Shown here: positions 5,016-28,556 of the stretch, piece by piece | Layout: the number at the start of each line of letters is the position of its first letter | How positions within the stretch are numbered: the first letter of the stretch is position 1 | DNA from: an uncultured Candidatus Rokubacteria bacterium | GTDB taxonomy: Bacteria > Methylomirabilota > Methylomirabilia > Rokubacteriales > DASRDR01 | Length of the DNA: 64,000 nucleotides | Direction of reading: 5' to 3' | Assembly (NCBI GenBank): GCA_963708025.1 | Contig: CAVPSB010000013.1 | Span: 160,001-224,000, forward strand | The notes under the pieces: generated by a model | Told to the model about the DNA's origin: nothing | The model's input: only the letters and a program-made list of their open reading frames with translations | Database searches by the model: none | Made by a program: the position numbers and the translations under genes

Positions 5016-5276
5016 CTAGGCGCTCGTGCGCCACATCGTGCGTTGAACGACGAGCACACCGGCCGCACCGATGAACGCGACGACGACCATCGCGAAGAGC
5101 CCCGCTTCCGGTGACACCTCCAGGGCCCGGAGGACCAAGCTCGCGACGAGACTTCCGCCGAGACCGAGGCCGACGTCCGTGATCAACCCGTAGCCTCCGC
5201 GCTTGAGCACACACCCGGCCAATCCACTGGCAAGCAATCCTCCGAGCACCCAGATCAGCGACACGTGGAACGTCAT
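5016..5276 (-). CDS. GlsB/YeaQ/YmgE family membrane protein (second copy)
   Basis: WVLGGLLASGLAGCVLKRGGYGLITDVGLGLGGS; ATGA overlap with the GntR stop. Confidence 0.8.
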   Translation of the reverse strand: MTFHVSLIWVLGGLLASGLAGCVLKRGGYGLITDVGLGLGGSLVASLVLRALEVSPEAGLFAMVVVAFIGAAGVLVVQRTMWRTSA

Positions 5277-6352
5277 GACCCGTTCTCCTTCGTCCGTTTC
5301 ACCGTCTGACGTCCATGCGGGAGCTGGAGCCCGTGAACCCGGGGGCGCGGGCGCCGCTCAACCGGACGCCGACGGCGGGGCGTCCCTTCCCCGTTCTGTC
5401 GCACCAGGAGGGTCGCCAGCATTTCGATCGCGCGCTTGTCGAGCGCCCGGTCGTCGACGATGACCTCCGCACTGGAGCCGACGAGCAGCCGCACCCGCTC
5501 GGCCGCCGGAGTCGAGCAGACGATGACGTCGACCCGCCGCACGAGACGACCCAGCGCCGCTCCCTCTACCGGGCACGATCCCACGAACACGATATTCGGC
5601 AGCCCAGCATTGGCGATCGAGTGTTCCACGTTGTGGGCAGTCTCGGGCTCGGCCGAGGCCACCCCCACCCGCGTCCCCGGCGGCAGCTGGGCCAAGCGGT
5701 GGAGGGTCTCGAGATGCACCTCGGCCAGGAGCGCGATCACCGGGACGCCCAGGCCTCCCAGGCGTCGCTCGACGTCCGGGAGATGCACGAAGCTCGTCAC
5801 CGCAGCCGCCCAGCGCCCCGGCTGCTTCTTGCGCCGCGCGCTCACCGCCAGATCGACGAGCCGCACCTTCTCCACCCGAACCGGAAGCTGGGCCTCCAGC
5901 TCTCGGGCAAAGAAGTCGAGCTCGGACGGATTGCATTCCACCAACAGGATCTCGAGATCACCGCGCACGGCCGCCGGCCGGTCCTCGGTCAAGCTCAAGA
6001 CGCTGACTGCCAGCTGGTCGGCGGTCATCCCCAGGGCTGCGGCCCGGATCACCATGTCCTTCAGGAAGGCCGCTCGGAGGTGGGGAGCCGGGCGGGCCGG
6101 GAGATCCGCGGCCACGAACACGCCCGTTCCTCGTCGCGCCTCCACATAGCCGCTCTGTTTCAGATCTTCGATGACGCGCGCCACGGTATTGGGATTGACG
6201 CCCAGAAAGCCGGCCAGCTCCCGGATGCTCGGCAGGGGTCGATCCGGCGGGACGCCGCCGGCCTCGATGACATGCTTCAGCTGTTCCGTCAGCTGCCGGC
6301 GGATCGGGATCGGGCTGTGCGCGTCCACGTGGAGAGGCATCTGATTAATCAT
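5273..6352 (-). CDS. GntR family regulator (YtrA-type HTH + PlmA-like C-terminal domain), copy 1
   Basis: IPIRRQLTEQLKHVI..LPSIRELAGFLGVNPNTVARVIEDL..GYVEARRGTGVFV; long alpha/beta C-terminus. Confidence 0.9.
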   Translation of the reverse strand: MINQMPLHVDAHSPIPIRRQLTEQLKHVIEAGGVPPDRPLPSIRELAGFLGVNPNTVARVIEDLKQSGYVEARRGTGVFVAADLPARPAPHLRAAFLKDMVIRAAALGMTADQLAVSVLSLTEDRPAAVRGDLEILLVECNPSELDFFARELEAQLPVRVEKVRLVDLAVSARRKKQPGRWAAAVTSFVHLPDVERRLGGLGVPVIALLAEVHLETLHRLAQLPPGTRVGVASAEPETAHNVEHSIANAGLPNIVFVGSCPVEGAALGRLVRRVDVIVCSTPAAERVRLLVGSSAEVIVDDRALDKRAIEMLATLLVRQNGEGTPRRRRPVERRPRPRVHGLQLPHGRQTVKRTKENGS

Positions 6353-6354
6353 AC

Positions 6355-6374
6355 TGTAATACTACACTAGTACA
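6355..6374. promoter_or_regulatory. Operator 1 TGTAATAC-TACA-CTAGTACA overlapping the minus-strand promoter TTGACA-N17-TAGTGT of GntR copy 1
   Basis: Imperfect 20-bp inverted repeat ending 2 nt before the ATG at 6352. Confidence 0.8.
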
Positions 6375-6584
6375 GACAGCTCTCGCTGTCAATGCTCCCC
6401 GGGCGGGTGCCAGGAGCAGTCGCCCGTTGACGTCGGGAGTGCCAGGCTTGATCCCCTCGTGCTCCTCGAAGAGTCGCGCCAGCATCTCGACCACCTCATC
6501 CGCGGAATCGAAGATCGCTACGAGCGGCCGGGCTGAAGGGGAATGTGGCACGCTTCACTATTCCTCTCCGGCGAGTGCGCATCT

Positions 6585-6604
6585 CGTATTACATTGGTGG
6601 TACA
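6585..6604. promoter_or_regulatory. Operator 2 CGTATTAC-ATTG-GTGGTACA
   Basis: Same YGTA-N12-TACA geometry in an AT-rich intergenic patch. Confidence 0.65.
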
Positions 6605-6784
6605 GTGAGCCGGGGCAAAGCCAATCACGATGAGGAGTTCGGCCACGCCCTGGTACGAAGCAAAGCTGCGCGAGACGTGCAAGGGCTCGGAGTCTCCTCT
6701 GCGCGTGTCCGTCCGTCCACCTCGCTCACCGGTTCGAGAAAGAGCTCGCGCGGTTCGCCCCTCATTGTGCTCGTCGTCCGGCGA

Positions 6785-7045
6785 ATGGCCGGCAGGCTGG
6801 CGAAGGGAGAGCAGAGCTTGAGACCGAAGCGCACAAAGGCCGTACTTCCTGCAACTCCGCATCCGGTTGAATGCTCGACGAGTGATCGGGCTGTCCTGAT
6901 CGATGCCTACAAGGCCGGCCTGATCGTGGCATGGAAGCGCGATGCCGAGCGTGGATACCGCTTGACATTTGCCGATCGACCGGATGAGTACGTGGAGGTC
7001 ACGAAGCTCACTCGGTATCTCGAGAGGCTCAACGGCGCCTCCTGA
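6785..7045 (+). CDS. Small hypothetical protein (start uncertain)
   Basis: C-terminal part DRAVLIDAYKAGLIVAWKRDAERGYRLTF..EYVEV looks protein-like. Confidence 0.5.
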   Translation: MAGRLAKGEQSLRPKRTKAVLPATPHPVECSTSDRAVLIDAYKAGLIVAWKRDAERGYRLTFADRPDEYVEVTKLTRYLERLNGAS

Positions 7046-7162
7046 CCGCTGAGAGCGAACAGCGGGGCCATGCCGCAGATGGTCGGCCGACCTTCGACGA
7101 TGGAAAGCCGCCGCCCTTCGGCGCCGGTAGCCCGTTCGTCTCCTCGTCCTTGCCCGGGGATC

Positions 7163-7357
7163 CTAGGGCCGCATCCTAGGCGGATACCGGGGCTGCTCTT
7201 CGACGGTCGCCGTTCGCGTGTCGGAAACCGGCCGCCACTCCTTCTCGTCTGGGGTCAGCCACCACACGCGCCCGGTGTCGTCCAAGGCGTAGAGGACCGG
7301 ACTGCCGTCCGCTTTCTGGGTTGCAGCGATCTGAATGAATTTCGAGACCTGCTCCAT
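7163..7357 (-). CDS. Small hypothetical protein (64 aa)
   Basis: GGGAG RBS; FIQIAA..VLYALDDTGRVWW. Confidence 0.6.
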   Translation of the reverse strand: MEQVSKFIQIAATQKADGSPVLYALDDTGRVWWLTPDEKEWRPVSDTRTATVEEQPRYPPRMRP

Positions 7358-7625
7358 TCGGTCTCCCTTCCTGGGTCCAGGTAACTTTCAGCCGTCGCCG
7401 CTCAACCCGCCACGGTCAACGACAGACTCAGCGTCGCCCCCTTTGCGGCTCACTCCAGAGCTCAGTGTCGCGCTAGGTCGTACCCACGTGGCCTTCGAAA
7501 CCGAGATGAAGACAGGATCAGCGGCCAGGGCGGGTGATCGGCGTCGAGCATCGTCTGGTCCCTGATTGCCATCGTGAGCCGGCACACATCAGGCGCCCGC
7601 ACTCATCCGGTTTCCCGTATCGTCT

Positions 7626-8081
7626 TCACCACTGATCTCTGTATGCACGCCCCTGCGCCGGGGAGGCCGGTTGCTCTTGTCTGCGCCTCCACCCATTCGG
7701 CTCTGCGCCCACGGAGCCGACCGGGGGGCCCTCCCGCCTCGAATGAGCGAAAGGCGTCCACCAGTTGCCGAACGAGACGAGCGACAGCGCGAGCATGTTG
7801 AGCGCGATGGGCAAGACTTTGGGGGTGATCGGTTCGTCCGAGAACCAGTACGCGAGCGTGCCACTCGACAGCACGAGGACGAGCACGGCGGTTTTCGGCG
7901 GCCATGCGCGCCGCCACACGCGACCGAGAGCTTCACCTAGGTCGCCCTCGAGCCGTCTGTGGAGAATCACCCATGACACGAATCCGGCCACAAGGAGTGC
8001 CGGAATCCATCGATGCCACCACAGAACCGCGGCGACAATCAGCAGCACTGCGGCACGCTGCCTGCGTTCTGCGCCGCTCAC
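7626..8081 (-). CDS. Hypothetical membrane protein
   Basis: GTGA overlap with the upstream stop at 8078-8081; several hydrophobic helices. Confidence 0.6.
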   Translation of the reverse strand: MSGAERRQRAAVLLIVAAVLWWHRWIPALLVAGFVSWVILHRRLEGDLGEALGRVWRRAWPPKTAVLVLVLSSGTLAYWFSDEPITPKVLPIALNMLALSLVSFGNWWTPFAHSRREGPPVGSVGAEPNGWRRRQEQPASPAQGRAYRDQW

Positions 8082-8290
8082 CGGGCCCCGCCGTCTGTGA
8101 GGGCCGTGACCGGGGCGCCGACGATCAGGACCAGCTTGATCGCGGCGAGCACACGGATCGTCAGCCGCGATGGGTCCAACTCGAACTGTCGGACCCGGTA
8201 GATCCAGCTGGCGATACCGCCAGCTCGAGTCAGCGCTGGGCCGACCATCGCGACGATCCAGACCGGAGTCCACACGGCTCGCCCCTCCAT
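8078..8290 (-). pseudogene. Internally deleted fatty-acid desaturase paralog (70 aa)
   Basis: N-part ALTRAGGIASWIY aligns with VLTQVAVIATSIY, and C-part FELDPSRLTIRVLAAIKLVLIVG with LEFDPSWLVIRALVSARLIVVVG, of the neighbouring desaturase; no His boxes. Confidence 0.65.
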
Positions 8291-8294
8291 GACG

Positions 8295-8648
8295 TCAGCC
8301 TTCCCCACCCTCGTCCCGGTAGGGATCATGCTCCGGTGTGGGGAAGCGATGGTGACCGAGAGACTCCCCATCGATGTCGATGAACACGAGGGCTTGCTGC
8401 CATCCCGGCCTATTCACCCAGATCGCCGATGCCACGGTTCCCGTGCGCATATTGACTCCCTGCCACACGCCGCCCGCAGGCTGGCCATCACGCCGGCTCG
8501 TCGTCAGCTCACGCTTGCAGGCTTCAAAACCGTCGCTCACGAGTGCATTCAGGATCTCGATCGGCGCCGCAACCCATCCCCGCTCCCGCTCGCTCCACGT
8601 CATCTTCCCCTGCTCGCGCAACTCATTGAGGCTGTTAACCGTCTGCAT
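8295..8648 (-). CDS. Hypothetical protein (117 aa)
   Basis: GGGAG RBS; globular composition (GGVWQGVN..VASAIWV..VFIDIDGE). Confidence 0.7.
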   Translation of the reverse strand: MQTVNSLNELREQGKMTWSERERGWVAAPIEILNALVSDGFEACKRELTTSRRDGQPAGGVWQGVNMRTGTVASAIWVNRPGWQQALVFIDIDGESLGHHRFPTPEHDPYRDEGGEG

Positions 8649-8856
8649 AGGTTCTCCCGGTCGCGGTCAGAAACCCGACACGATGCCGCGCCGGCCCATC
8701 CTGACGTCCCATCGGCCCGCTCAGCCGCGGGCCCGGACGGCCCCCGCGCTGCCTCCCCACCTCTACCCTCGAGGCCAATAGGCGCCCGGGCCGGGACGGC
8801 GCCTTTCGGCGAGAACGAATCGACCGCCGGGCGAATCGCTTCGACCGGATCAGCAA
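8635..8856 (-). CDS. Possible small basic protein (73 aa)
   Basis: Fills the gap between operon genes with overlaps at both ends; Arg-rich, could be spurious. Confidence 0.3.
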   Translation of the reverse strand: MLIRSKRFARRSIRSRRKAPSRPGRLLASRVEVGRQRGGRPGPRLSGPMGRQDGPARHRVGFLTATGRTYADG

Positions 8857-9611
8857 GCTGGCGTCGCGACCTCCGACCCGCGAGGGAGCCCGATCGACGG
8901 GCCAACGACGACAATGAGCCGCGCGCTCACGAGGGCGCGAATCACGAGCCAGGACGGATCAAACTCGAGCCACTGCATACTGAATTTCGGGGCCCGCGGG
9001 TGAGCGTGATGATTGTTGTGCAGGGCCTCCCCTCCCGTCACCCACGCCAGAAGCCGCCAGTTGTACGCGCTGTTGGCGAACGTCTGCCCGCCGCGCCAGT
9101 GGCCGAGCCCGTTGATCAGGGGCGCGAACACCAGGACATACAGGATGGCGTGCCCGAGGCCGACGATCAATCCCGGCATCAAACCGAGGATCGAACAGAG
9201 CAGCCCGACACCGATCACCGGGCCCGCCCAGCCCCGAGAGAACAGCGCGCGATCCCACCGATCCGGCGGGAGGTCTGGGGCGAATCTCTGGAGCGTGTCC
9301 GGGTTCCGCGCTTCACGCGCGTAGTAGTATGCGTTCAGGAGCTGGACGCGCCACAAGCCGAGCAGGCGCGGGCTGTGCGGGTCGCCGGGCCGGTCCGTGA
9401 AGGTGTGGTGCTTGCGGTGCACGGCGACCCACTCCTGACGGCACTGGCCCGTGGTCAGCCAGAGCAGGGCCCGGAACAGCACGTCGGCCACCGGGTGCAC
9501 TACGAGCGCCCGATGCGCAAGCCCCCGATGCAGGTAGATCGAGGTGGCGATCACCGCAACCTGAGTGAGGACGATGGTGCCGAATGCAACCGTGAGGGCG
9601 TGAATGAACAC
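8850..9611 (-). CDS. Membrane acyl-CoA/fatty acid desaturase (delta9-like)
   Basis: Three His boxes HRGLAH, HRKHH, HNNHH; GDPHSP; EFDPSW. Confidence 0.93.
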   Translation of the reverse strand: MFIHALTVAFGTIVLTQVAVIATSIYLHRGLAHRALVVHPVADVLFRALLWLTTGQCRQEWVAVHRKHHTFTDRPGDPHSPRLLGLWRVQLLNAYYYAREARNPDTLQRFAPDLPPDRWDRALFSRGWAGPVIGVGLLCSILGLMPGLIVGLGHAILYVLVFAPLINGLGHWRGGQTFANSAYNWRLLAWVTGGEALHNNHHAHPRAPKFSMQWLEFDPSWLVIRALVSARLIVVVGPSIGLPRGSEVATPAC

Positions 9612-9679
9612 GGCGGCTCCTTTTCCGTCTTACGGCGTTACCGAGTATCGGTCCCCCGTCGCTCGCGGGATGGCAGGCC

Positions 9680-9910
9680 CTACGCCGTCCGGGCTTGACG
9701 CTCGCCGATCGGCGTTGACTGACATTCGGGACACCTCGTTGCCCAATGCAGGATGCAACCCGCGCTGTCGCCGGGGTGCGGCCACGCGCTGTCGCATTCG
9801 ACACAGTAATGGGAGTGCCGTGACCTGGGGCTGGCGCGGATCACGGCTGCGGAGTGCTTCCTCCGCCACCAATCGCGTCCGGGCGTCACCGTAAGGGGCC
9901 AGGTCGCCAT
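9680..9910 (-). CDS. Small putative Zn-binding protein (76 aa)
   Basis: HSHYCVEC..H..C..CPEC; GGAG RBS. Confidence 0.5.
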   Translation of the reverse strand: MATWPLTVTPGRDWWRRKHSAAVIRASPRSRHSHYCVECDSAWPHPGDSAGCILHWATRCPECQSTPIGERQARTA

Positions 9911-10012
9911 AGCCTATCTCCCGCGGGGCATCACGCCCTCAAACCCTCCGGATGCCGAAGTTGATCTCCGGCGTCCGCACCCAGCCTCCGATCCGGCCGG
10001 TCTGGCTCCAGG

Positions 10013-10291
10013 TCACGCAGCCGCATCACGGTCGGCTCCGCCGTTCCACGCGTGCTTCATGGACGCGGGGTCAGGCGCCATCGGACGGAGCCGCAGCGGC
10101 CGGTACCCGCTCCGCCCGAGATCCTCGATGGCGCGCGCGACTGCATCCGGATTGGCGCTCTCGCCGGCCAACACCCGGACGCGCGGCAGCGCTTGGTGTC
10201 GCGGGACGCCGCCCTCGACCCGAGACTCGATCCCTTCCATCGGCTGGTGGCGGACCACGATCGACCGGTCATCGTCAATGTGCAGTCGCAT
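10013..10291 (-). CDS. Degenerate HTH-only GntR paralog (92 aa)
   Basis: MRLHIDDDRSIVVRHQ..GGVPRHQALPRVRVLAG..NPDAVARAIEDLGRSGY aligns with the N-termini of the two full GntRs. Confidence 0.7.
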   Translation of the reverse strand: MRLHIDDDRSIVVRHQPMEGIESRVEGGVPRHQALPRVRVLAGESANPDAVARAIEDLGRSGYRPLRLRPMAPDPASMKHAWNGGADRDAAA

Positions 10292-10301
10292 CAGGCTATA
10301 C

Positions 10302-10321
10302 CGTACTAGTACGGTAGTACA
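10302..10321. promoter_or_regulatory. Operator 3 CGTACTAG-TACG-GTAGTACA overlapping the minus-strand promoter TTGACA(10339-10334)-N17-TACCGT
   Basis: Same promoter/operator register as operators 1 and 4; also overlaps a perfect 18-bp palindrome TACCGTACTAGTACGGTA (10299-10316). Confidence 0.8.
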
Positions 10322-10569
10322 CACTGCCGGGCCTGTCAAGCTCCGATTCCGATGGTCGTGCCCGCGCCAGGTCGGGTCCAGTCAAGAGCGCTTTCTATGG
10401 ACGCGTGCGCGACCGCGGCTCGACCCGCGGACGAAGCAGGCCTCGACGCGCGGGGAACCCCAGTCCCATGGCCACGGCGAGCCGGCACGCCTTGCGTCCG
10501 CGTCCAGGCCTGCGCTACGCTGGCGCGGCCTCGCAGCCGCCGCCAGCTGGCGCGCAGGCAAGAACTCCC

Positions 10570-12533
10570 GTGAACGAGAACGCTCGCGTTCCGATCCCCT
10601 TCGGGCGATCGCTGCCACAGCCGGCGCTGGAGTCCCGCTCCACCATCGGGCGGTGGCTGCTCGGCGTGAGCGAGCTCCACGCCAGGAGAAGCCGTGAGAC
10701 GCACTCGTGGCGGCGCGTGATCTGGCTCACAGGCGTCAACTACTTCTCCACCCTGGGCTACCAGCCCGGCATCGCGCTCCTGGCCGCCGGTGCTCTCGCG
10801 CCGCTCGCAACGTCCGTCCTCGTCCTCGTCACGCTGCTCGGCGCCCTCCCGATCTATATCCAGGTCGCCCGCCGCTCCTACGCTGGCCAGGGGTCGATCG
10901 CGATGCTGGAGAACCTGCTCCCCGGTTGGACTGGCAAGCTCCTCGTGCTGATCCTGCTTGGGTTCGCGGCCACGGACTTCGTCATCACCATGACGCTGTC
11001 GGCCGCGGACGCCGCCAAGCACGCGATCGAGAATCCGTATCTCCATCGGTTCCTCAGCGACGCGCAGGTCGGGGGCACGCTGGTGCTCCTCGCCCTACTC
11101 GCCGTGATGTTCCTGCTCGGCTTCCGAGAAGCGATCGGGGTGGCCACGGTCGTCGCCATCCCGTACCTGCTGCTGAGCCTGGTCGTGCTCGTGCGCGGCC
11201 TCGTCGAGATCGCCGCCCGGCCGGAGCTGTGGAGCGGCTGGCAGCACGCCCTCGAGGCCCGGGGCGAGTGGGGCACGATCGCCGCCGGCGCGCTGCTAGT
11301 GTTCCCGAAGCTCGCCCTCGGGATGAGCGGCTTCGAGACCGGCGTCTCGGTGATGCCCCTCATCGACGGCGGCGCGTCCGATGCACAGCCGCGGCGCGGG
11401 GCCCAGCCTCCTGTCGGCCGGATTCACAACACGTGCAAGCTGCTCGTCGCGGCGGCAGCGATCATGAGCGTGATGCTTGTGCTCTCGAGTGTGGTCACGA
11501 CACTCCTGATCGCGCCGGCTGACTACCGGGAAGGGGGACCGGCGAGCGGGCGCGCGCTCGCCCACCTCGCCCACGGGTTCTTCAGCCCCGGGTTCGCCTC
11601 GCTCTATGACCTCTCGACCATCCTGGTCCTCTGGCTGGCCGGCGCCTCGGCGATGGCGGGGCTGCTGAACCTGGTCCCGCGCTACCTGCCGAGGTTCGGC
11701 ATGGCGCCGGCGTGGGCGGCGCGAGCGCGCCCGCTCGTCCTCGTGCTCTTCGTCATCAATGTGCTGGTCACGCTGATCTTCCGGGCCAGCGTGGAGGCGC
11801 AGAGCGGCGCCTACGCCACCGGCGTGCTCGTGCTGATCCTGTCAGCGGCGCTGGCGGTGACGCTGGCCCTTTGGCGCGAGCATCGACACCGGGCCAGCGT
11901 CTATTTCGGCGCCATGACCCTCGTCTTCGCCTACACACTCGTCGATAACTGCGTGGAGCGGCCGGACGGGGTGATCATCGGGAGCGCGTTCATCCTCCTC
12001 GTCCTCGTGGTGAGCACGGTGAGCCGATCCGTCCGCGCCACGGAGATCCGAGTGTCCGAGGCCTACTTCCTAGACCAGGCTTCGGCGGAGCTCGGCCCGG
12101 CGCTGGTGGGTAAGCGGGTGCACATGGTCCCCATGAAGGCGAGGTCGCCGAAGGCCCGGCCGCCAAAGGCGCCGAGATCCGCCGGTACTATCGGATCGAC
12201 GAGCCGCTGATCTTCGTGCACGTGAACCTCCTCGACAACCGCAGCGAGTTCCTGGCACCGCTGGAGGTCGAGGCGTCGCGGGACGGGCGGGATCACTCAT
12301 CGAGGTGACGGGGCGATCGCCATCGCCAACACGATCGCTTACCGCGCGAGATGGTGGACCCGATCAGCATCTTCCTCAGCCGGACCCGCCAGGACCTGAC
12401 GCGGCAGGCGTTTCGGTTCCTGCTCTTCGGGGAGGGGGAGACCGGGCTGCTCGTCTACGCCATCCTCCTCCGCTACTGGCAGTGGACGACCGAGGACGAC
12501 GTGCGACCGCGGATCCACCTCCTGTCGGACTGA
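10570..12533 (+). CDS. APC-superfamily amino acid/ion transporter (frameshifts near 3' end)
   Basis: WRRVIWLTGVNYFSTLGYQPGIA, FPKLALGMSGFETG, AQSGAYATGV; C-terminus continues in other frames (..FLLFGEGET). Confidence 0.82.
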
Positions 12534-12678
12534 AGGGACGGCCGTCGTGCGACCCTCGGGCGACGGGCCGATGGACGCTCTCAGCGCGGCCGCCTCGCGC
12601 CAGTCGGCTCCGCATTCTCGATCCTCTGTTAGATTAGTCTCGTAGCATACCGGCACGAAAGGGACGGCCCGCACCGCT

Positions 12679-13386
12679 ATGCTCAGCCGACGGCAGTTTA
12701 CTCGCGTGGTCTCGGCCGGCCTCGCCGGTGCGGTGGCGCCCGCGCTGCCCGCGGCCGCCACGGCACCCACCACGGCGGCGAGACGGTCCGACGTGCGGTT
12801 CGCCGTCATGCGGGGCCGTTCGAAGATCGGCGTGCACACCGTCGAGTTCCGCGACCGGCCGGACGGGCTCGCGGTCCACACGGTCATCGACCTCGCCGTC
12901 AAGGTCGTCTTCATCACCGTCTTCCGGTATCAGCACGAGTGCGAGGACGTCTGGGTGTCCGGGCAGCTCCGTTCCCTACGGAGTCGCACGAGCGAGGACG
13001 GCAAACGGTACGCCGTCGAGGCGACGGCGGAGCCGGACGGAATTCGAGTCGTCGGTCCGGGCGGCCCGCTCGTCGTCGGCTCCCGGCTGCTGGCGTCGAA
13101 CAGCCTCTGGAATCCCCTGCTGGTCCACCAGCAGCGCCTCATCGACGCGCAGTATGGCGGGGAGATCGGCCTCGTCGTCCACCGGCGCGGCACGGAGTCG
13201 CTCGTGCTCGCCGGCACGGAGCGGGTCGTCACCGACCGCTTCCAGATCCTCACGCCGCACTTCGGCGGTCTGCTCTGGTACGATGCCACGGGCCGTTGGG
13301 TCAAGGGCTCCCTCGAGCTCCGTGGGGAGTGGATCGACATGTCTTCGATCTCTAGAGCGCTCGCGGCGCCCGCGCCACGCTCGTGA
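12679..13386 (+). CDS. Tat-exported DUF6134-like beta-rich protein
   Basis: SRRQF twin-arginine signal; [37 protein letters not shown]. Confidence 0.7.
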
Positions 13387-13577
13387 CCACGGCGGCCGCG
13401 CCGGACGATATCGTGTACGAAATCGCGCGCGCGGTTCTCGAGCGCTTCGACGACTTCATGCGGCTGCACGCCGCCTTCGCACCGCTCGACCCGCGCGAGA
13501 TGGTCCGCGCCGGGAACCGGGCGCCGCTCCACCCCGGTGCGGAGCGCTACTATCGGGAGCGGGGCTCGCTGCCCTGA
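13383..13577 (+). pseudogene. C-terminal fragment of a TAXI TRAP solute-binding protein
   Basis: [36 protein letters not shown] is the typical TAXI C-terminus; the rest is absent. Confidence 0.75.
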
Positions 13578-13627
13578 ATGAGTCCCATCCGCGCCCGAGC
13601 CCTGACGGCTCGGAGGAGGTGACGGCC

Positions 13628-15381: not shown

Positions 15382-15439
15382 CCGTCGGGTCGCACGCGAC
15401 TAGGCTAGGCTGCGATCTCCTGACCGAGGAGCCTGATCC

Positions 15440-17300
<1,861 letters not shown>

Positions 17301-17427
17301 AGCGGACGCTCACGACGACAATCACCCGGGAGAGCGGGTCACCTGGCGGGCGAGCCTCCGGCTCACCGCGATCGCGAGGTCGGCCCGCTCGGGATCTGTC
17401 GCTCAGCGCTTGACCAGGTGGTCATGG

Positions 17428-17447
17428 TGTACTATCTTATTCATACA
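17428..17447. promoter_or_regulatory. Operator 4 TGTACTAT-CTTA-TTCATACA overlapping promoter TTGACC(17410)-N17-TATCTT(17433)
   Basis: Ends 2 nt (GT) before ATG 17450, identical arrangement to GntR copy 1. Confidence 0.8.
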
Positions 17448-17449
17448 GT

Positions 17450-18535
17450 ATGAAGATTCCGATGCGCCTGCAAGTCGATGCGCACAGCCCGATCCCGATC
17501 CGCCGGCAACTGACGGAACAACTCAAACACCTCATCGAGGGCGGCGGCGTCCCGCCGGACCAGGCGCTGCCCAGCATCCGGGAGCTCGCCGGCTTCCTCG
17601 GCATCAATCCGAATACGGTCGCGCGCGTCGTCGAGGATCTGAAGCAGAGCGGCTATGTGGAGGCGCGGCGAGGCAAGGGCGTGTTCGTCGCGCCGGCGCC
17701 TCCCGCCCGCCCGGCTCCGATCCTCCGCGAACGCTTTCTGCGGGACATGGTGATCCGGGCGGCGGCCCTCGGGATGACCGCTGACGACCTCGCGGTGGGC
17801 GTCCTGAGTCTGACCGGGGTTCGGCCCCCGGCCGTCCGGAGGGGGATCGAGATCCTGTTGGTGGAATGCAGTCCGCCGGAGCTCGACTTCTTTGCCCGGG
17901 AACTGGAGTCCCACATCCCGGTCCACGTGGATAAGGTACTCCTCGGTGACCTGGCGACCGCAGTGCGGCGCCAGAAGCAAGCCGGTCGCTGGGGGGCGGC
18001 GGTCACGAGCTTCTTCCATCTCCCGGAGGTGGAGCGCCGCCTGGGCGGCCTGGAGATCCCGGTGATCGCGCTCCTCGCCGAGGTCCATCTCGAGACCCTC
18101 CACCACCTGGCCCAGTTTCCATCCGGGACCCGGGTGGGCGTGGCCTCCGCTCACGTCGAGACCGCCCACAACCTGGAGCACTCGATCGCCAACGCCGGGC
18201 TGCCGAACATCGCACTGGTGGGGACGTCTCCCGCCGAGGGGGCCAGTTTGGAGCGCCTGGTGCGGCGAGTGGACGTCATGGTTTGCTCCACCGCCGCCGC
18301 GGATCGAGTCCGGCAGCTGGCTGGCTCGGCCGTGCAGGTGCTCATCGACGACCGGGCACTCGATCCGCGGGCCATCCAGATGCTCGCGGCCCTCATGGTG
18401 CAGCAAGACGGCGATAAGCCGGACAACCCTCCCGCGCCCCGTCCGAAGGCAGCTGGGCTGTCGGTCCGCTCCGGGCGCCCCGCCCGGGGCGCCACGCGGA
18501 AGACCGCGGGAGCACGTCATGCGGAGAAGCCGTAA
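17450..18535 (+). CDS. GntR family regulator (YtrA-type HTH + PlmA-like C-terminal domain), copy 2
   Basis: Highly similar over its full length to 5273..6352. Confidence 0.9.
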   Translation: MKIPMRLQVDAHSPIPIRRQLTEQLKHLIEGGGVPPDQALPSIRELAGFLGINPNTVARVVEDLKQSGYVEARRGKGVFVAPAPPARPAPILRERFLRDMVIRAAALGMTADDLAVGVLSLTGVRPPAVRRGIEILLVECSPPELDFFARELESHIPVHVDKVLLGDLATAVRRQKQAGRWGAAVTSFFHLPEVERRLGGLEIPVIALLAEVHLETLHHLAQFPSGTRVGVASAHVETAHNLEHSIANAGLPNIALVGTSPAEGASLERLVRRVDVMVCSTAAADRVRQLAGSAVQVLIDDRALDPRAIQMLAALMVQQDGDKPDNPPAPRPKAAGLSVRSGRPARGATRKTAGARHAEKP

Positions 18536-18749
18536 GCCGGTGGGAAACGGTGGCAGCGGAAGGCGAACGAGCAGCGCATCCGAGAACGGACGGCCTGGGC
18601 GATAGCTCCTGACTCCGCGTCTCCCTGGATCGCGCCTCACGCGACGTCCGCGACCAAGTAGCCAGCGAGGGCTCCGGGATCGATGCTGGTCGGCCCTGAA
18701 GTCACGTGAGGCATTTCGAAGCTCCAGGGATGATTCGCCGAGGCCACCG

Positions 18750-21700: not shown

Positions 21701-24700
21701 TGGGGCGCTGATCCTGGCCGTCGTGGCCGGGATGTCGGTCGTCGCTCGTTCGGCCAGGCAGCTGGCCGATCGCCGTGCCGTTCCTCTTGCTGTGGGCCCT
21801 CTCGCCGCTCATCGCGCGATGGGTCAGCCGGCCCCCGCGCGTCGATCCGACGCAGGGGCTGTCGGCGTCGGATGCGAGGCTCCTCCGCTCGACCGCACGC
21901 CGCACGTGGCGGTTCTTCGAGGCGTTCGTCGGTCCCGGCGATACGTTCCTGCCGCCTGACAACTTCCAGGAGGACCCGGCGCCGGTCCTCGCCCACCGCA
22001 CGTCGCCGACCAACATCGGGCTGTACCTCGGGGCGATCGTCGCCGCCCGCGATCTCGGCTGGCTCGGGATGCTGGAGACCGTCGACCGGCTCGAGGCGAC
22101 GCTCGCGACGATGGGCCGGCTCGAGCGCTTTCGGGGCCACTTCTACAACTGGTATGAGACGACCGACCTTCGCCCGCTGGAGCCCCGCTACGTGTCCACG
22201 GTGGATAGCGGGAATCTGGCGAGCCAGCTCCTCGTTCTCGGGAATGCCTGTCGCGGGGCGCTCGAGCGCCCGCTACTCGATCGCGAAGCCTTCGCCGGAA
22301 TCGAGGACGCGGTATTGCTCGTGCGCGAGGCGGCGAGTGCCCTCGTGGATGACCGGCGCACGCAAACGGTCACGGCTCGGCCATCTGGACCAAGCCTGCG
22401 AGGCTCTGGTCATGACGCTTCGCGACCCACCCCGAACGGCGGCCGACTGGGTCGTCCGCTTGGGTCAGCTCGCCGGCCAGGCCGATGCCCTGGTGGACAT
22501 CGCACGCACGTTGACGGCGGAGCGCGGCGATGGCGAGGACTCGGACGTCCTCGTCTGGGCGCAGGCGACGCGCGCCACCATCGCGAGCCACCGGCGCGAC
22601 CTCGACCGGCTGATGCCGTGGGCATCCCACCTCGAGGCCGTCGTCGCCGATCTCTCCCCGCGTCCCGCGAGGCCGCGATCGCGAGCCGGGCCCTCTGTTC
22701 CTCGTTTCCCACCCTGGCCGCCCTGGCCGACCTCTGCGAGAGTGCGGTCAGCGAGCTCACGGCCATGCTCGACGGCCGCCCGCGCGCCGGGTCCGTCGCG
22801 TGGGGGTCGAGTCGAGCACGTCCACGAGCTCATCGGACAGCTGGAGGGCGCCGCCGTGGCGTCACGAGCGCTCGTCGAGCGCCTCTCCGCCATCGCCCGC
22901 GTCACGAAGCAGCTCTTCGATGCGATGGACTTTGGCTTCCTCTTCCACTCTGCGCGCAAGATCTTCTCGATCGGCTATCGCGTCACGGAGGGGAGTCTCG
23001 ATCCGAGCGCGTACGATCTCCTCGCCTCCGAAGCGCGGCTCGCGAGCTTCATCGCGATTGCCAACGGCGCGGCGCCCACGTCGCACTGGTTCCACCTGGG
23101 TCGCCCGATGACGCCCGTCGGGCTCGGGGCGGCGCTGGTGTCCTGGTCCGGCTCGATGTTCGAGTACCTGATGCCCGCGCTCGTCATGCAGGCGCCGCCG
23201 GGAAGCTTGCTCCAGCGGACGTATCGCCTCGTCGTCCAGCGTCAGATTGGGTACGGGGCGGAGCACGGGATTCCCTGGGGCATCTCCGAATCGGCGTACA
23301 ACGTGCGCGATCTCGACCTGACCTACCAGTATTCGAACTTCGGGGTTCCGGGTCTGGGTCTCGAGCGGGGCCTCAGCGAGGACTTGGTCGTCGCGCCCTA
23401 CGCGACCGCCCTGGCCGCCATGATCGACCCGGGTGCCGCCGCTCGCAACTTCACGCGCCTCATCGCGGTGGGCGGGAGGGGATTCTACGGCTTCTACGAG
23501 GCGCTGGACTACACGCCGTCCCGGCTCCCGGCGGGGACGACCGTGGCGATCGTTCGCGCCTACATGGCGCACCATCAGGGCATGACCCTCATCGCGCTGG
23601 CGAACGTGCTCCGAGATGGGGTGATGCGCGCGCGATTCCACGGCGAGCCCATCATCCAGGCGACCGAGCTTCTCTTGCAGGAGCGCGTGCCCCGGGACGT
23701 GGCGGTGGCGAGACCGCGGGCGGAAGAGGTGCAGGCGCCGGCCCATGTGCGGGAGTTCGTGGAGCCGTCCTTCCGGCAGTTCACGTCTCCGCACGACCCG
23801 ACGCCGCGGACGCACCTGCTCTCCAACGGCCGGTACACGGTGATGCTGACGACCGCGGGGTCGGGCTACAGCCGGTGCGCGGAGCTCGCCGTCACCCGAT
23901 GGCGGGAGGACGTCACCCGGGATCACTGGGGGACCTATCTCTTCCTGCGGGATGTCCAGAGCGGGGCGGTCTGGTCGGCGGGGTATCAGCCCACCGGCGT
24001 CGAGCCGGACGACTATCGCGTGACCTTCGCGGAGGACCGGGCCGAGTTGTATCGGCGCGATGGCGCCATCACGACCACGCTCGAGGTGCTGGTCTCGCCG
24101 GAGGACGACGCCGAGCTGCGGCGGGTGTCCGTCACGAACCTGGGGGGGCAGACGCGAGAGATCGAGCTGACCTCCTACGCCGAGCTCGTGCTGGCTCCGC
24201 CGGCGGCGGATACCGCGCACCAGGCCTTTTCCAGCCTCTTCGTCCAGACGGAATGGGTAGCCGATCTCGGGGCCCTGCTGGCGACCCGCCGTGGCCGGTC
24301 GGCGACGGAGCCGGCGATCTGGGCGGCCCACATCGTCGTCGTCGAAGGCCAGTCCGGTGGAGGGACTCAGTACGAGACCGACCGCGGGCGGTTCCTCGGC
24401 CGGGGTCGCGGGGTCCGCACCCCGATGTCGGTCATCGACGGGAGGCCCCTCTCGAACACGACCGGCTCGGTGCTCGATCCAATCTTCAGCCTCAGACGGC
24501 GAGTCCGTCTCGCGCCGGGAGAGAGCGCACGCCTGATCTTCTCCACGCTCGTCGGCCCGTCGCGCGAAGCCGCCGTGGCGCTCGCCGACAAGTATCGCGA
24601 CCCCGCGACGTTCGAGCGGACGGTCACGCTGGCCTGGACGCGGGCGCAGGTCCAGCTCAACCATCTCGGGGTTCGCGCGGACGAGGCCCGCCTGTTCCAG

Positions 24701-27656
24701 GATCTTGCGGGCCGGATTCTCTACGCGGACGCGACGCTTCGGCCCGCAGCGGATGGTGCTGCGGCAGAATGCGTCCGGGCCTGCGGCCCTGTGGGCCCAC
24801 GGGATCTCCGGCGACCTCCCGATCGTCCTGGTCCGCATCGACGAGCCGGAGGATCGAGGCATCGTCCGACAGCTCCTCCGCGCGCACGAGTACTGGCGCC
24901 TGAAGGGGCTGGCGGTCGATCTCGTCATTCTGAACGAGCGGGCGCACTCCTACACGGAGGAGCTCCAGGCGTCGCTGGAGACGCTGGTCCGGACGAGCCA
25001 GTCGGCGTCGCGGCACGAGGGGCACGAGACACACGGGAAGGTCTTCATCCTGCGGAAGGACCTGCTCAAGGCGCACGGAGCGCGATGCCCTGCAGACGGC
25101 CGCTCGAGCCATCCTCCTGAGTCGGCACGGCACGCTCGCGGAGCAGCTCGCGCGCGCCACGATCCGCTCCGAGCACGGCGGCCCCGCCCCGCCGCCGCCC
25201 GGCCCGAGCCCCAGTCCCCCGCCGACGCGCCGCCGGCCCGCCCGGAGTTCGAGTTCTTCAACGGGCTGGGGGGGTTCGTCGACGATGGGCGGGAGTACGT
25301 CACCGTCCTCGGGGAAGGGCAATGGACGCCCGCGCCCTGGATCAACGTCGTCGCGAATCCCGCGCTTCGGCTTCCAGGTCTCCGAGTGCGGGGCCGGCTA
25401 CACGTGGTCGCGCAACAGCCGGGAGAATCAGCTGACGGCGTGGTCCAACGATCCCGTCAGCGACCCGCCCGGGGAGACCATCTATGTCCGGGACGAAGAG
25501 ACCGGTGACCTGTGGGGCCCGACGCCGCTGCCCATCCGGGAGGACGCGTCGCCCTACGTCGCCCGGCATGGTCAGGGCTACAGCCGCTTCGAGCACACGT
25601 CCCATGGCATCTTCCTGAGTCTGCTCCAGTTCGTGCCGGTGAACGACCCGGTGAAGATCTCTCGGCTGAGGATCGAGAACCGATCCGGCAAGTCCCGGCG
25701 TCTGTCCGTGACCGCGTACGTCGAATGGGTCCTGGGAGTCTCGCGAAGCGCGACCGCGCCCGTCATCGTCACCGAGATCGATCCGGACACGGGTGCGCTG
25801 TTCGCGCGCAACCCGTGGAACATCGACTTCGGCGATCACGTGGCGTTCGCCGATCTCGGGGGTCGTCAGACCGCGTGGACCGGCGATCGGACGGAGGTCC
25901 TGGGTCGGAACGGAACACTCGATCATCCGGCGCTGCTGGAGCGAGGGGGCCGCCCGTCCGGCCGGGTCGGCGCCGGACTCGACCCCTGCGCGGCCCTGCA
26001 GACCGTGATCGAGGTGGCGCCCGGCGGGCGCGAGGAGATCGTGTTCTTCCTCGGTGAGGCCGCGACGGCCGCCGAGGCGCGCGGGCTGCTCACTCGCTAC
26101 CGGACAGCGGACCTCGATCTGACGTTGCAGGCCGTGAAGACTCGGTGGGACGACATCGTCGGCGCCATCCAGGTCAAGACGCCGGACCGCTCCGTGGACA
26201 TCATGCTCAACCGCTGGCTTCTCTACCAGACGCTCGCCTGCCGTGTCTGGGCCCGATCCGCCTTCTATCAGGCCGGGGGCGCGTACGGGTTTCGCGACCA
26301 GCTCCAGGACGTGATGGCCCTGACCGTCGCGAACCGGGAGGTCGCGCGGGAGCATCTCCTCCGGGCCGCCAGCCGCCAGTTCGTGGAGGGCGACGTGCAG
26401 CACTGGTGGCATCCCCCCTCCGGCCGGGGGGTGCGCACCCGGATCTCCGACGACGCGATCTGGTTGCCCTACGCCGTCACGCAGTACCTCGAGGCGACGG
26501 GCGATGCCGGCGTGCTCGACGAGGTCATCCCCTTCCTCGAAGGGCCCGTCCTCGCGACGGGGCAGCACGAGTCGTACTTCGAGCCCACGGTGTCCGCCGA
26601 GCACGGCACCGTGTTCGAGCACTGCGCCCGCGCGCTCGACCGGAGTCTCGCCATCGGCGCGCACGGCCTGCCCCTGATCGGTACGGGGGACTGGAACGAC
26701 GGCCTGAACCGCGTCGGCCCCGAGGGGCATGGAGAGAGCGTGTGGCTCGGCTGGTTCCTGCACACGACCCTCTGGGAGTTCGCGCGGTGGGCCGATGCCC
26801 GCGGCGAGCGCGGGCGCGCCGACAGGTGGCGCGGCCACGTCGACATCCTGAAGACCTCGCTCGAGGAGCAGGCGTGGGACGGGGACTGGTATCGTCGCGC
26901 CTTCTTCGACGACGGGACCCCCCTCGGGTCCGTCGTCAACGCGGAGTGCCGCATCGATTCCATCGCGCAGTCGTGGGGGGTGCTCTCGGGCGCCGCCGAG
27001 CCCGAAGCGCGCGGCGCGCGCGATGGCGGCCGTCGAGGAGTATCTCGTGCGGCGAGGTCAGGAGCTGGTCCTCCTGTTCACGCCCCCGTTCGACCGCGCG
27101 CCTGTCGACCCCGGCTACATCAAGGGCTACCCGCCGGGCGTGCGCGAGAACGGCGGCCAGTATACCCATGCCGCGATCTGGTCGGTGATGGCGTTCGCGG
27201 CGCTCGGTGACGGCGACAAGGCCAACGAGCTCTTCTCGATCCTGAACCCGATCAACCGCGCGAGCACGCGGGCGGGAGTCCACCGGTACAAGGTGGAGCC
27301 CTACGTGGCGGCCGCCGACGTCTATGCCGAGTCCCCGCACGTCGGCCGCGGAGGATGGACGTGGTATACGGGCTCCGCGGGCTGGATGTACCGCGCGGGG
27401 ATCGAGTGGCTCCTCGGGTTCCGGCTGCGTGGCGCGGTGCTTCACCTCGACCCCTGCATCCCGCGCGCGTGGCGACGCTTCGAGATCGCGTTCCGCTACC
27501 ACGGGTCGCGCTACGAGATCACGGTCGAGAACCCCCGCGGGGTGACGCGGGGCATCGCCCGATCGAGGTCGATGGACCCTCCTCGCGTCCGGCAGCGCGA
27601 GCCTCCCGTTGACCGCGGATGGCGCGACGCATCGCGTGCGCGTCGTCCTCGGATGA
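18750..27656 (+). CDS. ndvB: Cyclic beta-1,2-glucan synthase (NdvB/ChvB/Cgs-like: GT84 + glycoamylase-like + GH94), many frameshifts; start approximate
   Basis: IRAELFS, AAEWFVDNF, WMGWERKRGKL, YVITLDADT, SHDLFEG, RQHRWARGDWQ, PPDNFQE, YDLLASEARL, PWGISES, QAGGAYGFRDQLQD, GDWNDG, RENGGQYTHA, WYTGSAGW; ends RVVLG-TGA at 27656. Confidence 0.92.
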
Positions 27657-27754
27657 GAGCTCCGACCAGGGCAGTCACCAGGCTGATCACCAGGCCGCCA
27701 CGAAGACTCCGATGATCAGCGGCGATTACGAGGGCGTCCCTTCGGACGCCTCCG

Positions 27755-28045
27755 TCACACTCGTCCGCTTGCTGGTGCTGGGCGAATCGTCTCCTGCCCC
27801 GCTCGCAGAGCCTCGCTGACGTGCTCCGTCGCGTCCTGCACGGCTTCCTCAGCGCGCCGTAAGGTGTCCCCACCGCGATCGACCAGCTTGCCGAGCCTCT
27901 CCCCTACTCCCTGAACGCCTTCCGCGGCTTTCGTGCGCACCGCGCGCGATCCCTCCCCCAGATAGTCCTCGATCTCCTTCCCCCAGAACCATACGGCGAC
28001 TGCACCGGTGATCGCTCCCAAGACGAACACTTCACTCGTTCGCAT
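27755..28045 (-). CDS. YtxH-like general stress protein
   Basis: FVLGAITGAVAVWFW followed by an amphipathic coiled region; AAGGAGG RBS. Confidence 0.6.
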   Translation of the reverse strand: MRTSEVFVLGAITGAVAVWFWGKEIEDYLGEGSRAVRTKAAEGVQGVGERLGKLVDRGGDTLRRAEEAVQDATEHVSEALRAGQETIRPAPASGRV

Positions 28046-28097
28046 CGCGGGTCCTCCTTAGTTGCAAGACTTGAACTTCCCTACGCGGATCCATGTC

Positions 28098-28259
28098 TCA
28101 GCGCCGCTCTCTGCGACGTCGCCGTCGTGCGGCCGTGCGACCCGGAAATCGCGCCGTCCCCGGATGCCTGCTTCCTTTCCCGAAGCCGGGATGGCATTCG
28201 GGTCGGCAAAACGGCCCCTCGCCCGTAAACTCCTTCTTGCAGGTGTCACACTGCGCCAT
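28098..28259 (-). CDS. Small Cys4 Zn-binding protein with Arg-rich tail (53 aa)
   Basis: GGAGG RBS; MAQCDTCKKEFTGEGPFCRPEC...RRRRRRERR. Confidence 0.6.
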   Translation of the reverse strand: MAQCDTCKKEFTGEGPFCRPECHPGFGKGSRHPGTARFPGRTAARRRRRRERR

Positions 28260-28423
28260 TGTTGAATCCTCCACGAGACTGGTTCGCGACGACCATCGCT
28301 GGGCTGGGCCGGGCTCACCAGACGCCCGCGCCCTCGCTGACGTGCTCGAGTTGCTCCGCCAGGGTCCAGCGGACCGGGACCGGGTTGGGCGTCTCGCCTT
28401 GCGGGTGCATCGACCGCTCGTAC

Positions 28424-28443
28424 TGTACCATAGTTCTAGTACA
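28424..28443. promoter_or_regulatory. Operator 5 TGTACCAT-AGTT-CTAGTACA
   Basis: Same consensus, in the divergent Zn-finger/groES intergenic region. Confidence 0.75.
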
Positions 28444-28527
28444 CTCCGTACAACCCATCGAGCCCCCAAGCCGAGGGGCCGCGAGCGTCGCCCGCTCGCC
28501 GTGGGGCCCGGGGCTCACGTTGCTCGA

Positions 28528-28556
28528 TTGCCACTGTACTACTTTAGTGGTACACT
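28528..28556 (+). promoter_or_regulatory. groES promoter TTGCCA-N17-TACACT overlapped by operator 6 TGTACTAC-TTTA-GTGGTACA (28535-28554)
   Basis: Near-consensus sigma70 promoter; the operator spans the spacer and part of the -10. Confidence 0.85.

Follow-up and report, generated by a model that had tools for sequence, protein, structure and literature searches.

Background

Within the GntR superfamily, proteins of the YtrA subfamily are described in the available text of PMC4494728 as having an effector and oligomerisation part reduced to two helices of about 50 aa, and their regulons as usually consisting of an operon with ABC-transporter genes controlled from single sites, paired operators and divergent control being rare. 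The published operator of YtrA, as quoted in the available part of PMC8060467, is AGTGTA-13bp-TACACT. The PlmA subfamily is given as exclusive to cyanobacteria in the accessible portion of PMC5083789, and its motif CGRE1, according to the excerpted text of PMC6191309, is 21–22 nt long and flanked by GTTG/GTTA. The 64,000-nucleotide stretch of an uncultured Candidatus Rokubacteria genome analysed here (the window, G000:C13:160001-224000, where G000 is the host assembly of 8.17 Mb, 71% G+C and 49 contigs) carries six palindromes of 20 bp beside genes for a GntR-family regulator (gntR), relics of such genes, and the chaperonin genes groES and groEL (groESL). Judged from sequence, it is likely that these palindromes are real operators of the GntR-family regulator, through which groESL and the regulator gene itself are controlled in Rokubacteria, probably by repression.

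To our knowledge, the established regulators of groESL (HrcA, HspR, sigma-32, CtsR and RheA) include no GntR-family protein. The control circuit seems to be undescribed, and the regulator family and its sensor domain seem not to have been tied to chaperonins before; a literature search at the level of titles and abstract openings gave no report of a GntR-type groESL regulator or of this regulator family. An initial annotation of the window had proposed the palindromes as operators of a GntR regulon and had given the YtrA operator in the same form as that quoted above from the available part of PMC8060467.

Operators in the window and the host genome

The six AT-rich palindromes lie at the positions given in the initial annotation. 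Those at the promoter of a regulator gene or its relic are termed O_P, and that at the groES promoter O_D. The sites and the chaperonin genes are as follows.

6355..6374, minus strand: O_P of the regulator gene G1 (359 aa); 33.1 bits
6585..6604, no strand assigned: site with an uncertain target, CGTATTACATTGGTGGTACA; 27.0 bits, the weakest of the six
10302..10321, minus strand: O_P before a gntR relic, with a complete TTGACA-N17-TACCGT promoter; 29.3 bits
17428..17447, plus strand: O_P of the regulator gene G2 (361 aa); 28.7 bits
28424..28443, minus strand: O_P before a decayed gntR stub; 30.1 bits; O_D is 111 bp away as against the usual 40 bp
28528..28556, plus strand: groES promoter-like site, TTGCCA-N17-TACACT with TG before the -10 box; encloses O_D
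28535..28554, plus strand: O_D of the groES promoter, TGTACTACTTTAGTGGTACA; 34.4 bits; its right arm supplies the extended -10 box TGgTACACT
28620..28927, plus strand: groES (Cpn10); Pfam Cpn10, E 1.4e-37
28983..30596, plus strand: groEL of the GntR-linked type; Pfam Cpn60, E 1.1e-83; groups with the copy on contig C34

The window has six matches to the pattern YGTA-N12-TACR, whereas 100 dinucleotide shuffles average 0.21 and none of them reaches six; over the whole of G000 this loose pattern has 27 matches. The scores in bits are those of a log-odds matrix built from the six window sites. When the 8.17-Mb genome was scanned with it, exactly 10 positions scored 27.0–35.1 bits and the next best 16.3 bits; the peaks in three mononucleotide-shuffled genomes were 18.8, 19.9 and 24.5 bits. 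The motif is thus not present at background frequency. The additional sites, at C34:213236, C34:213528, C25:260635 and C10:215233, extend a regulon that had been thought self-contained to three other contigs, where they include a second groESL. Because the matrix was made from the window sites only, these four sites, and all of those in relatives described below, are independent of it. On the sequences available, the operator core is AGTGTA-N12-TACAc/gT.

Dispersed mobile or structural repeats, such as repetitive extragenic palindromic (REP) or miniature inverted-repeat transposable element (MITE) hairpins or recombination sites, would also be palindromic and present in several copies, and a separate dispersed repeat of about 60–70 bp does exist in G000. 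The palindromes could hardly be elements of this kind, however, as there are only 10 copies in 8.17 Mb, all of them in promoter regions at a fixed distance from the -35/-10 boxes and start codons, and it is the outer bases that are conserved, the centre being variable. Neither target duplications nor any repeat structure in the flanks was seen at the sites.

Promoter geometry

The G1 promoter is TTGACA-N17-TAGTGT on the minus strand, with the -35 box TTGACA at 6387-6392 and a -10 box that matches 3 of 6 consensus positions. That of G2 is TTGACC-N17-TATCTT, with TTGACC at 17410-17415 and the -10 box at 17433-17438, and its O_P reaches from the last spacer bases across the -10 box to 2 nt before the ATG. 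The TAnnnT box is within the left operator arm, and the operators of G1 and G2 both end 2 nt before the start codon (...ACAGT-ATG). The register TTGAC-N17-TAnnnT and the two GT-ATG ends that had been claimed from the window are therefore correct, the former at the 359-aa gene, the 361-aa gene and 10302. Likewise, the site said to overlap the groES promoter, at 28535 and 65 nt before groES, is found inside TTGCCA-N17-TACACT. A promoter scan of 28300-28700 gave two promoter-like sites against 0.0 in shuffles; in 6250-6700 the scan gave nothing at threshold. In relatives, the upstream layout is O_D, 2–3 nt, TTGACn, a 17-nt spacer, O_P (which contains TACTAT), GT and ATG, and canonical TTGACn-N17-TACTAT promoters are found inside or beside the operators of their loci.

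This arrangement bears on the direction of control. The regulator might activate groESL from O_D while repressing only itself, or might act as a dual regulator. Some GntR/MocR proteins are activators (GabR, PdxR). The gntR -35 box follows closely on O_D, and relatives have a poor -35 region at groES, which makes an activator contact conceivable. The overlap of O_D with both the spacer and the extended -10 box at the groES promoter-like site, however, puts it in the classic position for occlusion, and YtrA is described as a negative regulator in the part of PMC8060467 available. Activation of groESL is therefore considered unlikely, and repression at both promoters is preferred.

Conservation in relatives

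The comparative set consists of 43 orthologous loci (64–82% identity) with 34 distinct upstream regions. O_P, with the consensus TGTACTATTGTGGTCATACA, is present in 30 of the 34 and starts 19–29 nt before the start codon, with one at -40; O_D, with the consensus TGTACCACTAAAATAGTACA in the gntR direction, is present in 25. The start-to-start distance between them is 40 bp in 13 of the 22 loci that hold both. The outer TGTA/TACA and adjacent bases of the relatives' sites are nearly invariant and the centre is variable. A groES-groEL operon is divergent from gntR in 18/34 loci, with the groEL start 140–658 bp from gntR, and in one further locus groEL immediately precedes gntR on the same strand. 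Row L002 among the 34 belongs to a genome flagged unpublished (G029), without which the counts of regions, O_P, O_D and divergent groESL become 33, 29, 24 and 18.

Sites of this type were found in all five of the regulator-bearing relatives searched, in each case with at least one adjoining gntR. Five relatives of the same order that have no regulator (96–100% complete; one of them, G058, is flagged unpublished) contain pattern matches at the control level and, as judged by eye, no TGTACTA...TAGTACA-type site. Conservation of the motif upstream of orthologous gntR and groES genes had been named beforehand as the test of the proposal, and it holds in the relatives. In sequence comparison the palindromes thus behave as had been proposed, as operator sites for the GntR/YtrA-like regulator beside them, and they link it with groESL and with autoregulation.

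A second near-perfect 20-bp palindrome, TGTACCGAC-N2-GTCGGTACA, was found about once per genome in 6 of 10 Rokubacteria searched (G002:C16:29096, G012:C30:66482, G096:C34:62894, G086:C322:1622, G058:C508:17615 and G023:C2:59666). It occurs independently of the presence of the GntR regulator, is not among the loose-pattern matches of G000, and probably serves as operator for a different regulator whose outer half-sites are related.

The existence of this family, with its similar outer arms, shows that other factors with related half-sites are to be expected in the order, and the palindromes of the window could in principle be operators of such a factor, with the gntR gene merely one of its targets. 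This is highly improbable given that the site occupies a fixed position on the regulator's own promoter in 30/34 loci, that it is absent from 5/5 genomes without the regulator and present in 5/5 with it, and that the half-sites match those published for YtrA, which has the closest DNA-binding module. Recognition by the adjacent GntR regulator is the preferred explanation.

The regulator and its copies

Two intact regulator genes and two relics are present in the window.

5273..6352, minus strand: intact regulator G1, 359 aa; 74–77% identical to G2 in tblastn segments
10013..10291, minus strand: gntR relic of 92 codons; 48–49% identical to residues 5-69 of G1/G2, with the wing lost
17450..18535, plus strand: intact regulator G2, 361 aa; GntR winged helix-turn-helix (wHTH), YtrA-like dimerisation helices and a Rossmann-like sensor domain
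28315..28410, minus strand: gntR relic of 31 codons; the translation, MHPQGETPNPVPVRWTLAEQLEHVSEGAGVW followed by a stop, aligns with the N-termini of the intact paralogs

The three regulator paralogs attributed to the window are therefore two intact genes and two relics, the third intact paralog, G3, being on another contig (C10:213016-214056). Pairwise identity between G1, G2 and G3 is 77–83% over the first 90 residues and 70–77% in the sensor part. For the 10013..10291 relic, no frame shows any additional homology, the sensor domain is missing, and Pfam gives no family even with E relaxed to 1. The stub at 28315..28410 is the relic of a gntR that was ancestrally divergent from groESL. Further 5' relics of gntR are found at C25:260665, around 215200 on C10, and at C35:64724.

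Close homologs are labelled Candidatus Rokubacteria, Rokuibacteriota or Methylomirabilota. A word-indexed protein search returned 1231 matches at E up to 0.001, of which the best 120 are 73–94% identical; a representative library gave 12054 matches at E up to 0.001 and 59 at 1e-30. When the phylum was sampled evenly, matches at 1e-20 were obtained in 49 of 101 genomes (G000 included). On this evidence from homologs, a GntR-family regulator of about 360 aa, predicted to be dimeric, is widespread in Rokubacteria. Among more distant paralogs of the same phylum (35–40% identical), EamA transporters adjoin the gene in 3 of 4 loci examined, and copies in Atribacteria adjoin a 2-oxoacid:ferredoxin oxidoreductase rather than groESL. 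The chaperonin link is therefore specific to the clade of close orthologs.

The protein belongs to the GntR superfamily by its match to Pfam GntR PF00392 (E 4.8e-13 and 5.4e-13, residues 19-80, above cut-off) and by its match to the DNA-binding domain of YvoA (Z 14.3, root-mean-square deviation (rmsd) 0.9). Local Pfam and NCBIfam searches recognise the wHTH alone, the best NCBIfam likeness being to MocR-type and YtrA-type heads. A precomputed label, PF27163 (YmtS_Ross in the Atlas), is attached to close homologs, P0001 (94% identical) among them, and to 41% of the nearest Atlas cluster. No relevant paper on YmtS was found among titles and abstract openings.

An AlphaFold model of G2 from a 63-row alignment has a mean predicted local distance difference test score (pLDDT) of 86.9. 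Whole YtrA-type proteins can be superposed on residues 6-124 (for 3neu, Z 13.5 and rmsd 9.1 over 117 aligned residues; for 6sbs, Z 14.1–14.5). Residues 132-321 are modelled as a two-lobed, Rossmann-like alpha/beta domain of about 200 aa, so that the regulator, with this predicted extra sensor domain, is not a plain YtrA protein. Its best structural match is the N-terminal sensor of PrpR (2pju, Z 11.3, 171 aligned, rmsd 7.2). The matches to this domain are of a generic alpha/beta kind, with receiver domains at Z of about 10 and PrpR_N at Z 9.8–11.3, and in Foldseek also periplasmic binding proteins and Asp/Glu racemases. The Foldseek and VIA lists consist mostly of wHTH matches, and a sequence search of the PDB matched the N-terminal module only, with no PlmA chain among the matches.

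Outside the wHTH, Cys140 and His190 are the sole invariant residues in the 63-row alignment of homologs 23–94% identical, and Glu139 is conserved in at least 90% of the aligned family members. By the modelled secondary structure, these three lie where strands one and three of the first lobe end, and they may form one pocket. A homodimer model scored 0.42 against 0.00 for the best control; the mark for this score is reached by 20 of 30 solved homodimers and by 1 of 23 solved monomers. At least 41% of contacts are common to the model runs, pLDDT of the partner does not fall below 72, and helices 90-123 are at the centre of the interface. As YtrA dimers have already been solved, the good score may be due to likeness to known structures.

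Two classes of chaperonin

There are five groEL loci in G000. GntR-type sites accompany the window copy and that at C34:211213-212817. The copies at C2:36038 and C4:18740 are instead preceded by CIRCE (TTAGCACTC-N9-GAGTGCTAA), at 0 and 1 mismatch, which is not found before the window or C34 copies, and a fifth copy, 61% identical, is at C2:321897. HrcA is encoded on C38; the GntR regulator itself has no HrcA domain by Pfam. Each of the relatives G002, G012, G099 and G025 likewise has a CIRCE-linked groEL in addition to a GntR-linked one, the latter adjoining gntR in the first three and about 3 kb from it in G025.

A GroEL tree was made from all 15 groEL rows fetched (partial groEL matches of G002, G025 and G096 were not fetched). 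The four GntR-linked copies of G002, G012, G099 and G025 form one clade (support 93/99), and the five CIRCE-linked copies of the same four genomes form a separate one (94/87). The copies of G000 branch at the base without resolution, except that its two GntR-linked copies pair (97/94). The class labels require 3 changes on this tree against a shuffled mean of 6.5, and none of 200 shuffles was as low.

At the second groESL on C34, a proximal-type gntR promoter-operator now precedes two receiver-domain genes rather than gntR; in relatives, these two genes adjoin the gntR-groESL locus. The C34 groESL is flanked by genes for an rve-type integrase/transposase and for DUF4372 and DDE transposase (L031 2781-4115 and 8639-10725, L031 being G000:C34:206000-222000). 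In the window, a LigD primase-polymerase gene follows just after groEL (30947-32425, plus strand). Part of 27700-30600 is found in 23 of 24 listed public sequencing runs, in every case as contigs and with shares of at most 0.35, which probably reflects the conservation of groEL.

Genes behind the operators and decayed regulator copies

The genes found downstream of the window operators are listed below.

1748-3316, minus strand: Na+/H+ exchanger; Na_H_Exchanger, E 8.3e-51
3436-3750, minus strand: small membrane protein downstream of G1
3976-4287, minus strand: ribbon-helix-helix (RHH)-like protein; FitA-like RHH at E 0.02 at best, a weak match
4302-4865, minus strand: 187-aa protein downstream of G1
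5016..5276, minus strand: GlsB/Transgly_assoc-like membrane protein, 86 aa; Pfam Transgly_assoc, E 2.2e-4, 21.8 bits, below the cut-off of 25.3
7626-8273, minus strand: 215-aa membrane protein behind the desaturase
8295-8648, minus strand: 117-aa protein, 54% identical to an operator-preceded gene of G045
about 8850-9650, minus strand: fatty-acid desaturase; FA_desaturase, E 3.4e-13
27755..28045, minus strand: helical protein of 96 aa, hydrophobic over one stretch near the N-terminus; the gene is downstream of the 28315..28410 stub

The 86-aa gene is probably co-transcribed with G1, because its start overlaps the G1 stop (ATGA), and among the genes downstream of G1 this GlsB-like gene is the only one well placed for co-transcription. 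Of the genes named in the initial annotation, the Na+/H+ exchanger and the desaturase have solid Pfam matches, while the GlsB and RHH assignments are weak and below the Pfam cut-offs. A placement of the GlsB, RHH and antiporter genes at 6380-8900 was rejected, as none was recognised there by Pfam among open reading frames (ORFs) of at least 35 aa; they are at 1748-5276 instead. The segment 7626..9650 is a probable operon behind the 10302 relic. The 96-aa protein has only weak Pfam matches (Apolipoprotein 0.006, YtxH 0.73) and is a candidate target of the 28424 promoter.

The 10302 cassette and that at C25:260635 are 77% identical over 313 bp. Their operators and -35 boxes are identical and the spacer and stub differ, which points to selection acting on the control elements. 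Behind the C10 cassette are a GlsB-like gene and a 130-aa gene, the pair that is also found in G096, and then G3; behind that on C25 is a relative, 40% identical, of this 130-aa gene. In the relative G096, the first gntR paralog is preceded by an operator, the second intact paralog (L060) is followed directly by a fatty-acid desaturase, a pair of operators precedes a GlsB-like gene and a 130-aa gene, and one operator precedes groES with no gntR beside it. Compared with this genome, the 10302 cassette and the desaturase of G000 look like a decayed form of the gntR-desaturase operon. Relatives of other families (G002, G012) mostly have the gntR/groES pair only, and the family of G000 has more. 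From the Pfam families of neighbouring genes, no ABC transporter was found beside any regulator copy.

It might be that only the gntR and groES sites function and that the 10302, 28424, 6585, C25 and C10 cassettes are neutral wreckage of duplication and rearrangement. Decay of the stubs is plain, the second groESL, on C34, has transposase genes next to it, no target can be recognised for site 6585, and there are long untranslated stretches between the stub promoters and the next genes. Neutral decay would not, however, readily account for the full conservation of operator and -35 box between twin stubs whose spacer and coding remnant have diverged, nor for the same kinds of gene following operators in G096, G065 and G045 (desaturase, GlsB with the 130-aa gene, and a 150-aa gene). 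Wreckage is accordingly thought a rather doubtful account of these cassettes, and retained promoter-operators are preferred.

Site 6585 is 230 bp upstream of the G1 operator and adjoins the relic of a receiver-like gene (6348-6551, minus strand) that matches a gene at C34:213633-214124. Inspection by eye of the translated plus strand of 6601-8900 and minus strand of 6381-8900 revealed no groES relic behind it.

An operator of the type described here is also found in two relatives before genes for a ribosomal protein S21 paralog and an RRM-type RNA-binding protein (G096, L060 6421-7839; G065, L064 3405-4824). Genes for S21, RRM proteins and desaturases are cold-induced in cyanobacteria, which hints that an expanded regulon may respond to temperature shifts in both directions. 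The label of a membrane/protein stress regulon, given in the initial annotation, is still one suggested by gene content.

On the opposite strand from the 10302 operator and 84 nt from it there is an ORF of 601 aa (10405-12207, plus strand) with high third-position G+C and no Pfam family, which may be divergently controlled from that operator; it is followed by a DUF6134 gene (12679-13383, plus strand). Just upstream of the C25 cassette is a dispersed repeat of about 60–75 bp (C25:260515-260590) with a G/C-rich inverted repeat inside it. Further copies, 82–100% identical, are at C13:564789-564852, C13:276827-276896 and C31:211564-211631 and also on C18, C14, C24 and C15, and it may be a REP-like element.

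Points against operator control of groESL

Several observations weigh against control of groESL and gntR from these operators, or limit it. The matrix is circular for its own six sites. In 15 of the 34 orthologous loci, groESL is absent within the flank fetched, and the gntR-groESL link is therefore frequent and not universal. The distance between O_P and O_D in G000 is 111–292 bp and not 40 bp, which makes cooperative action in G000 less certain. Site 6585 has no Pfam-recognisable ORF in 6380-8800, and the desaturase starts about 650 nt behind the 10302 promoter. The gene content of the regulon, with chaperonin, desaturase and, in relatives, S21/RRM, does not indicate one obvious stress. Public RNA runs consist of contigs only, with shares of at most 0.23, and cannot show transcript starts.

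The quality of the assembly must also be considered. G000 has an estimated contamination of 8.18% and many frameshifted genes, therefore copy numbers on other contigs may mix strains. At 8.17 Mb, with five groEL loci and three intact gntR genes, it is larger than its relatives (2–6 Mb), and co-assembly of two strains may explain part of this copy number. Several large genes are broken across reading frames, namely those for GTP-dependent PEPCK (window 12728-15400/14245-15378), FtsH (15440-17248/15609-17297), a giant GH94 glucan phosphorylase/synthase-like protein (21194-25117/25285-27207/27023-27712) and an AcrB-type pump on C25 (L032 1889-6884). This suggests indel errors of long-read assembly or real pseudogenes, and calls for caution with claims of broken genes in G000.

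Proposed mechanism

The sites with their statistics, their conservation and their constant placement were observed directly, as were the synteny and the division of groEL into two classes. From these we infer binding by this protein, repression, cooperativity between operators, a signal, and activity of the stub promoters. Ancestrally, the regulator gene would have been transcribed divergently from a groES-groEL paralog dedicated to it. O_P would cover the gntR -10 box and transcription start, giving autorepression, while O_D, usually 40 bp or about four helical turns away, would abut the gntR -35 box and provide with its far arm the extended -10 box of the groES promoter. From this placement, bound regulator is expected to block RNA polymerase at both promoters. 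The 40-bp phasing and the dimer would allow two dimers to bind cooperatively in the ancestral layout. Release from the DNA would presumably be triggered through the C-terminal Rossmann-like sensor domain, where a Glu-Cys/His pocket in a PrpR_N-like fold could receive a small ligand, a metal or a thiol-reactive cue. The sister groESL in the same genomes would stay under HrcA/CIRCE.

In the family of G000, the regulator gene appears to have been duplicated together with its promoter and operator. Three copies are intact; several would have decayed to 5' stubs whose promoter-operator still drives the genes behind, so extending the regulon to the desaturase, GlsB-like and other small stress-type proteins. 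A wider scheme, in which Rokubacteria run two chaperonin circuits, one with an old GroEL paralog under HrcA/CIRCE and one under a ligand- or redox-sensing GntR repressor that answers a metabolic or oxidative cue and not unfolded protein in itself, and in which the regulon of one family grew in an unusual way, through decayed regulator copies, is put forward tentatively.

If correct, the system would add a candidate groESL regulator of another protein family. This candidate is conserved throughout an uncultured soil phylum that is widespread, where it accompanies a second, HrcA-controlled chaperonin, and it would make a concrete case that GroEL paralogs have specialised in function. The two operators, the geometry of the promoters and the protein are known in enough detail for direct testing in vitro or in E. 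coli, an advantage in a phylum without cultured members. The stub cassettes would be an example of a regulon that expands because the promoter of a defunct regulator copy is retained.

Comparison with known systems

The closest likeness is to YtrA of Bacillus subtilis and its subfamily. The regulator shares with them the wHTH and two-helix dimerisation module (whole-chain superpositions at Z 12–14.5), what appears to be an autoregulated negative mode of action, and a long palindrome with GT/AC far from the centre (TGTA-N12-TACA, often AGTGTA-N12-TACAGT). The half-sites AGTGTA/TACACT of YtrA are nearly identical to those of the regulator, with a spacer of 12 nt here and 13 in YtrA. It differs in that the YtrA-type helices (90-106 and 111-123) do not end the chain and are followed by the alpha/beta domain at 132-321, in that the operators are paired with groESL divergent and no ABC-transporter operon attached, and in that the target is a chaperonin.

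The similarity to PlmA is one of size, of a GntR wHTH near YtrA/MocR and of a distinct C-terminal domain (PMC4494728, PMC5083789, in the parts available). The host here belongs to the Rokubacteria/Methylomirabilota and not to the cyanobacteria, and the TGTA/TACA ends differ from the GTTG/GTTA flanks of the PlmA motif, the comparison with PlmA being one of published descriptions. With the N-terminal domain of PrpR (2pju) there is a shared plan of a two-lobed alpha/beta ligand-sensing domain attached to a transcription factor, yet the Z score is middling, the rmsd high, sequence similarity absent and the output domain another one.

In its working the circuit would resemble HrcA-CIRCE, as there too an operator palindrome lies over the groES promoter and repression is presumably relieved under stress. 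GroEL feeds back on HrcA. The protein families (GntR and the HrcA domain) and the operator sequences are unrelated, and the GntR regulator, unlike HrcA, is encoded divergently from groESL and would autoregulate via a second operator. Both systems are present side by side within single genomes, each with a groESL paralog of its own.

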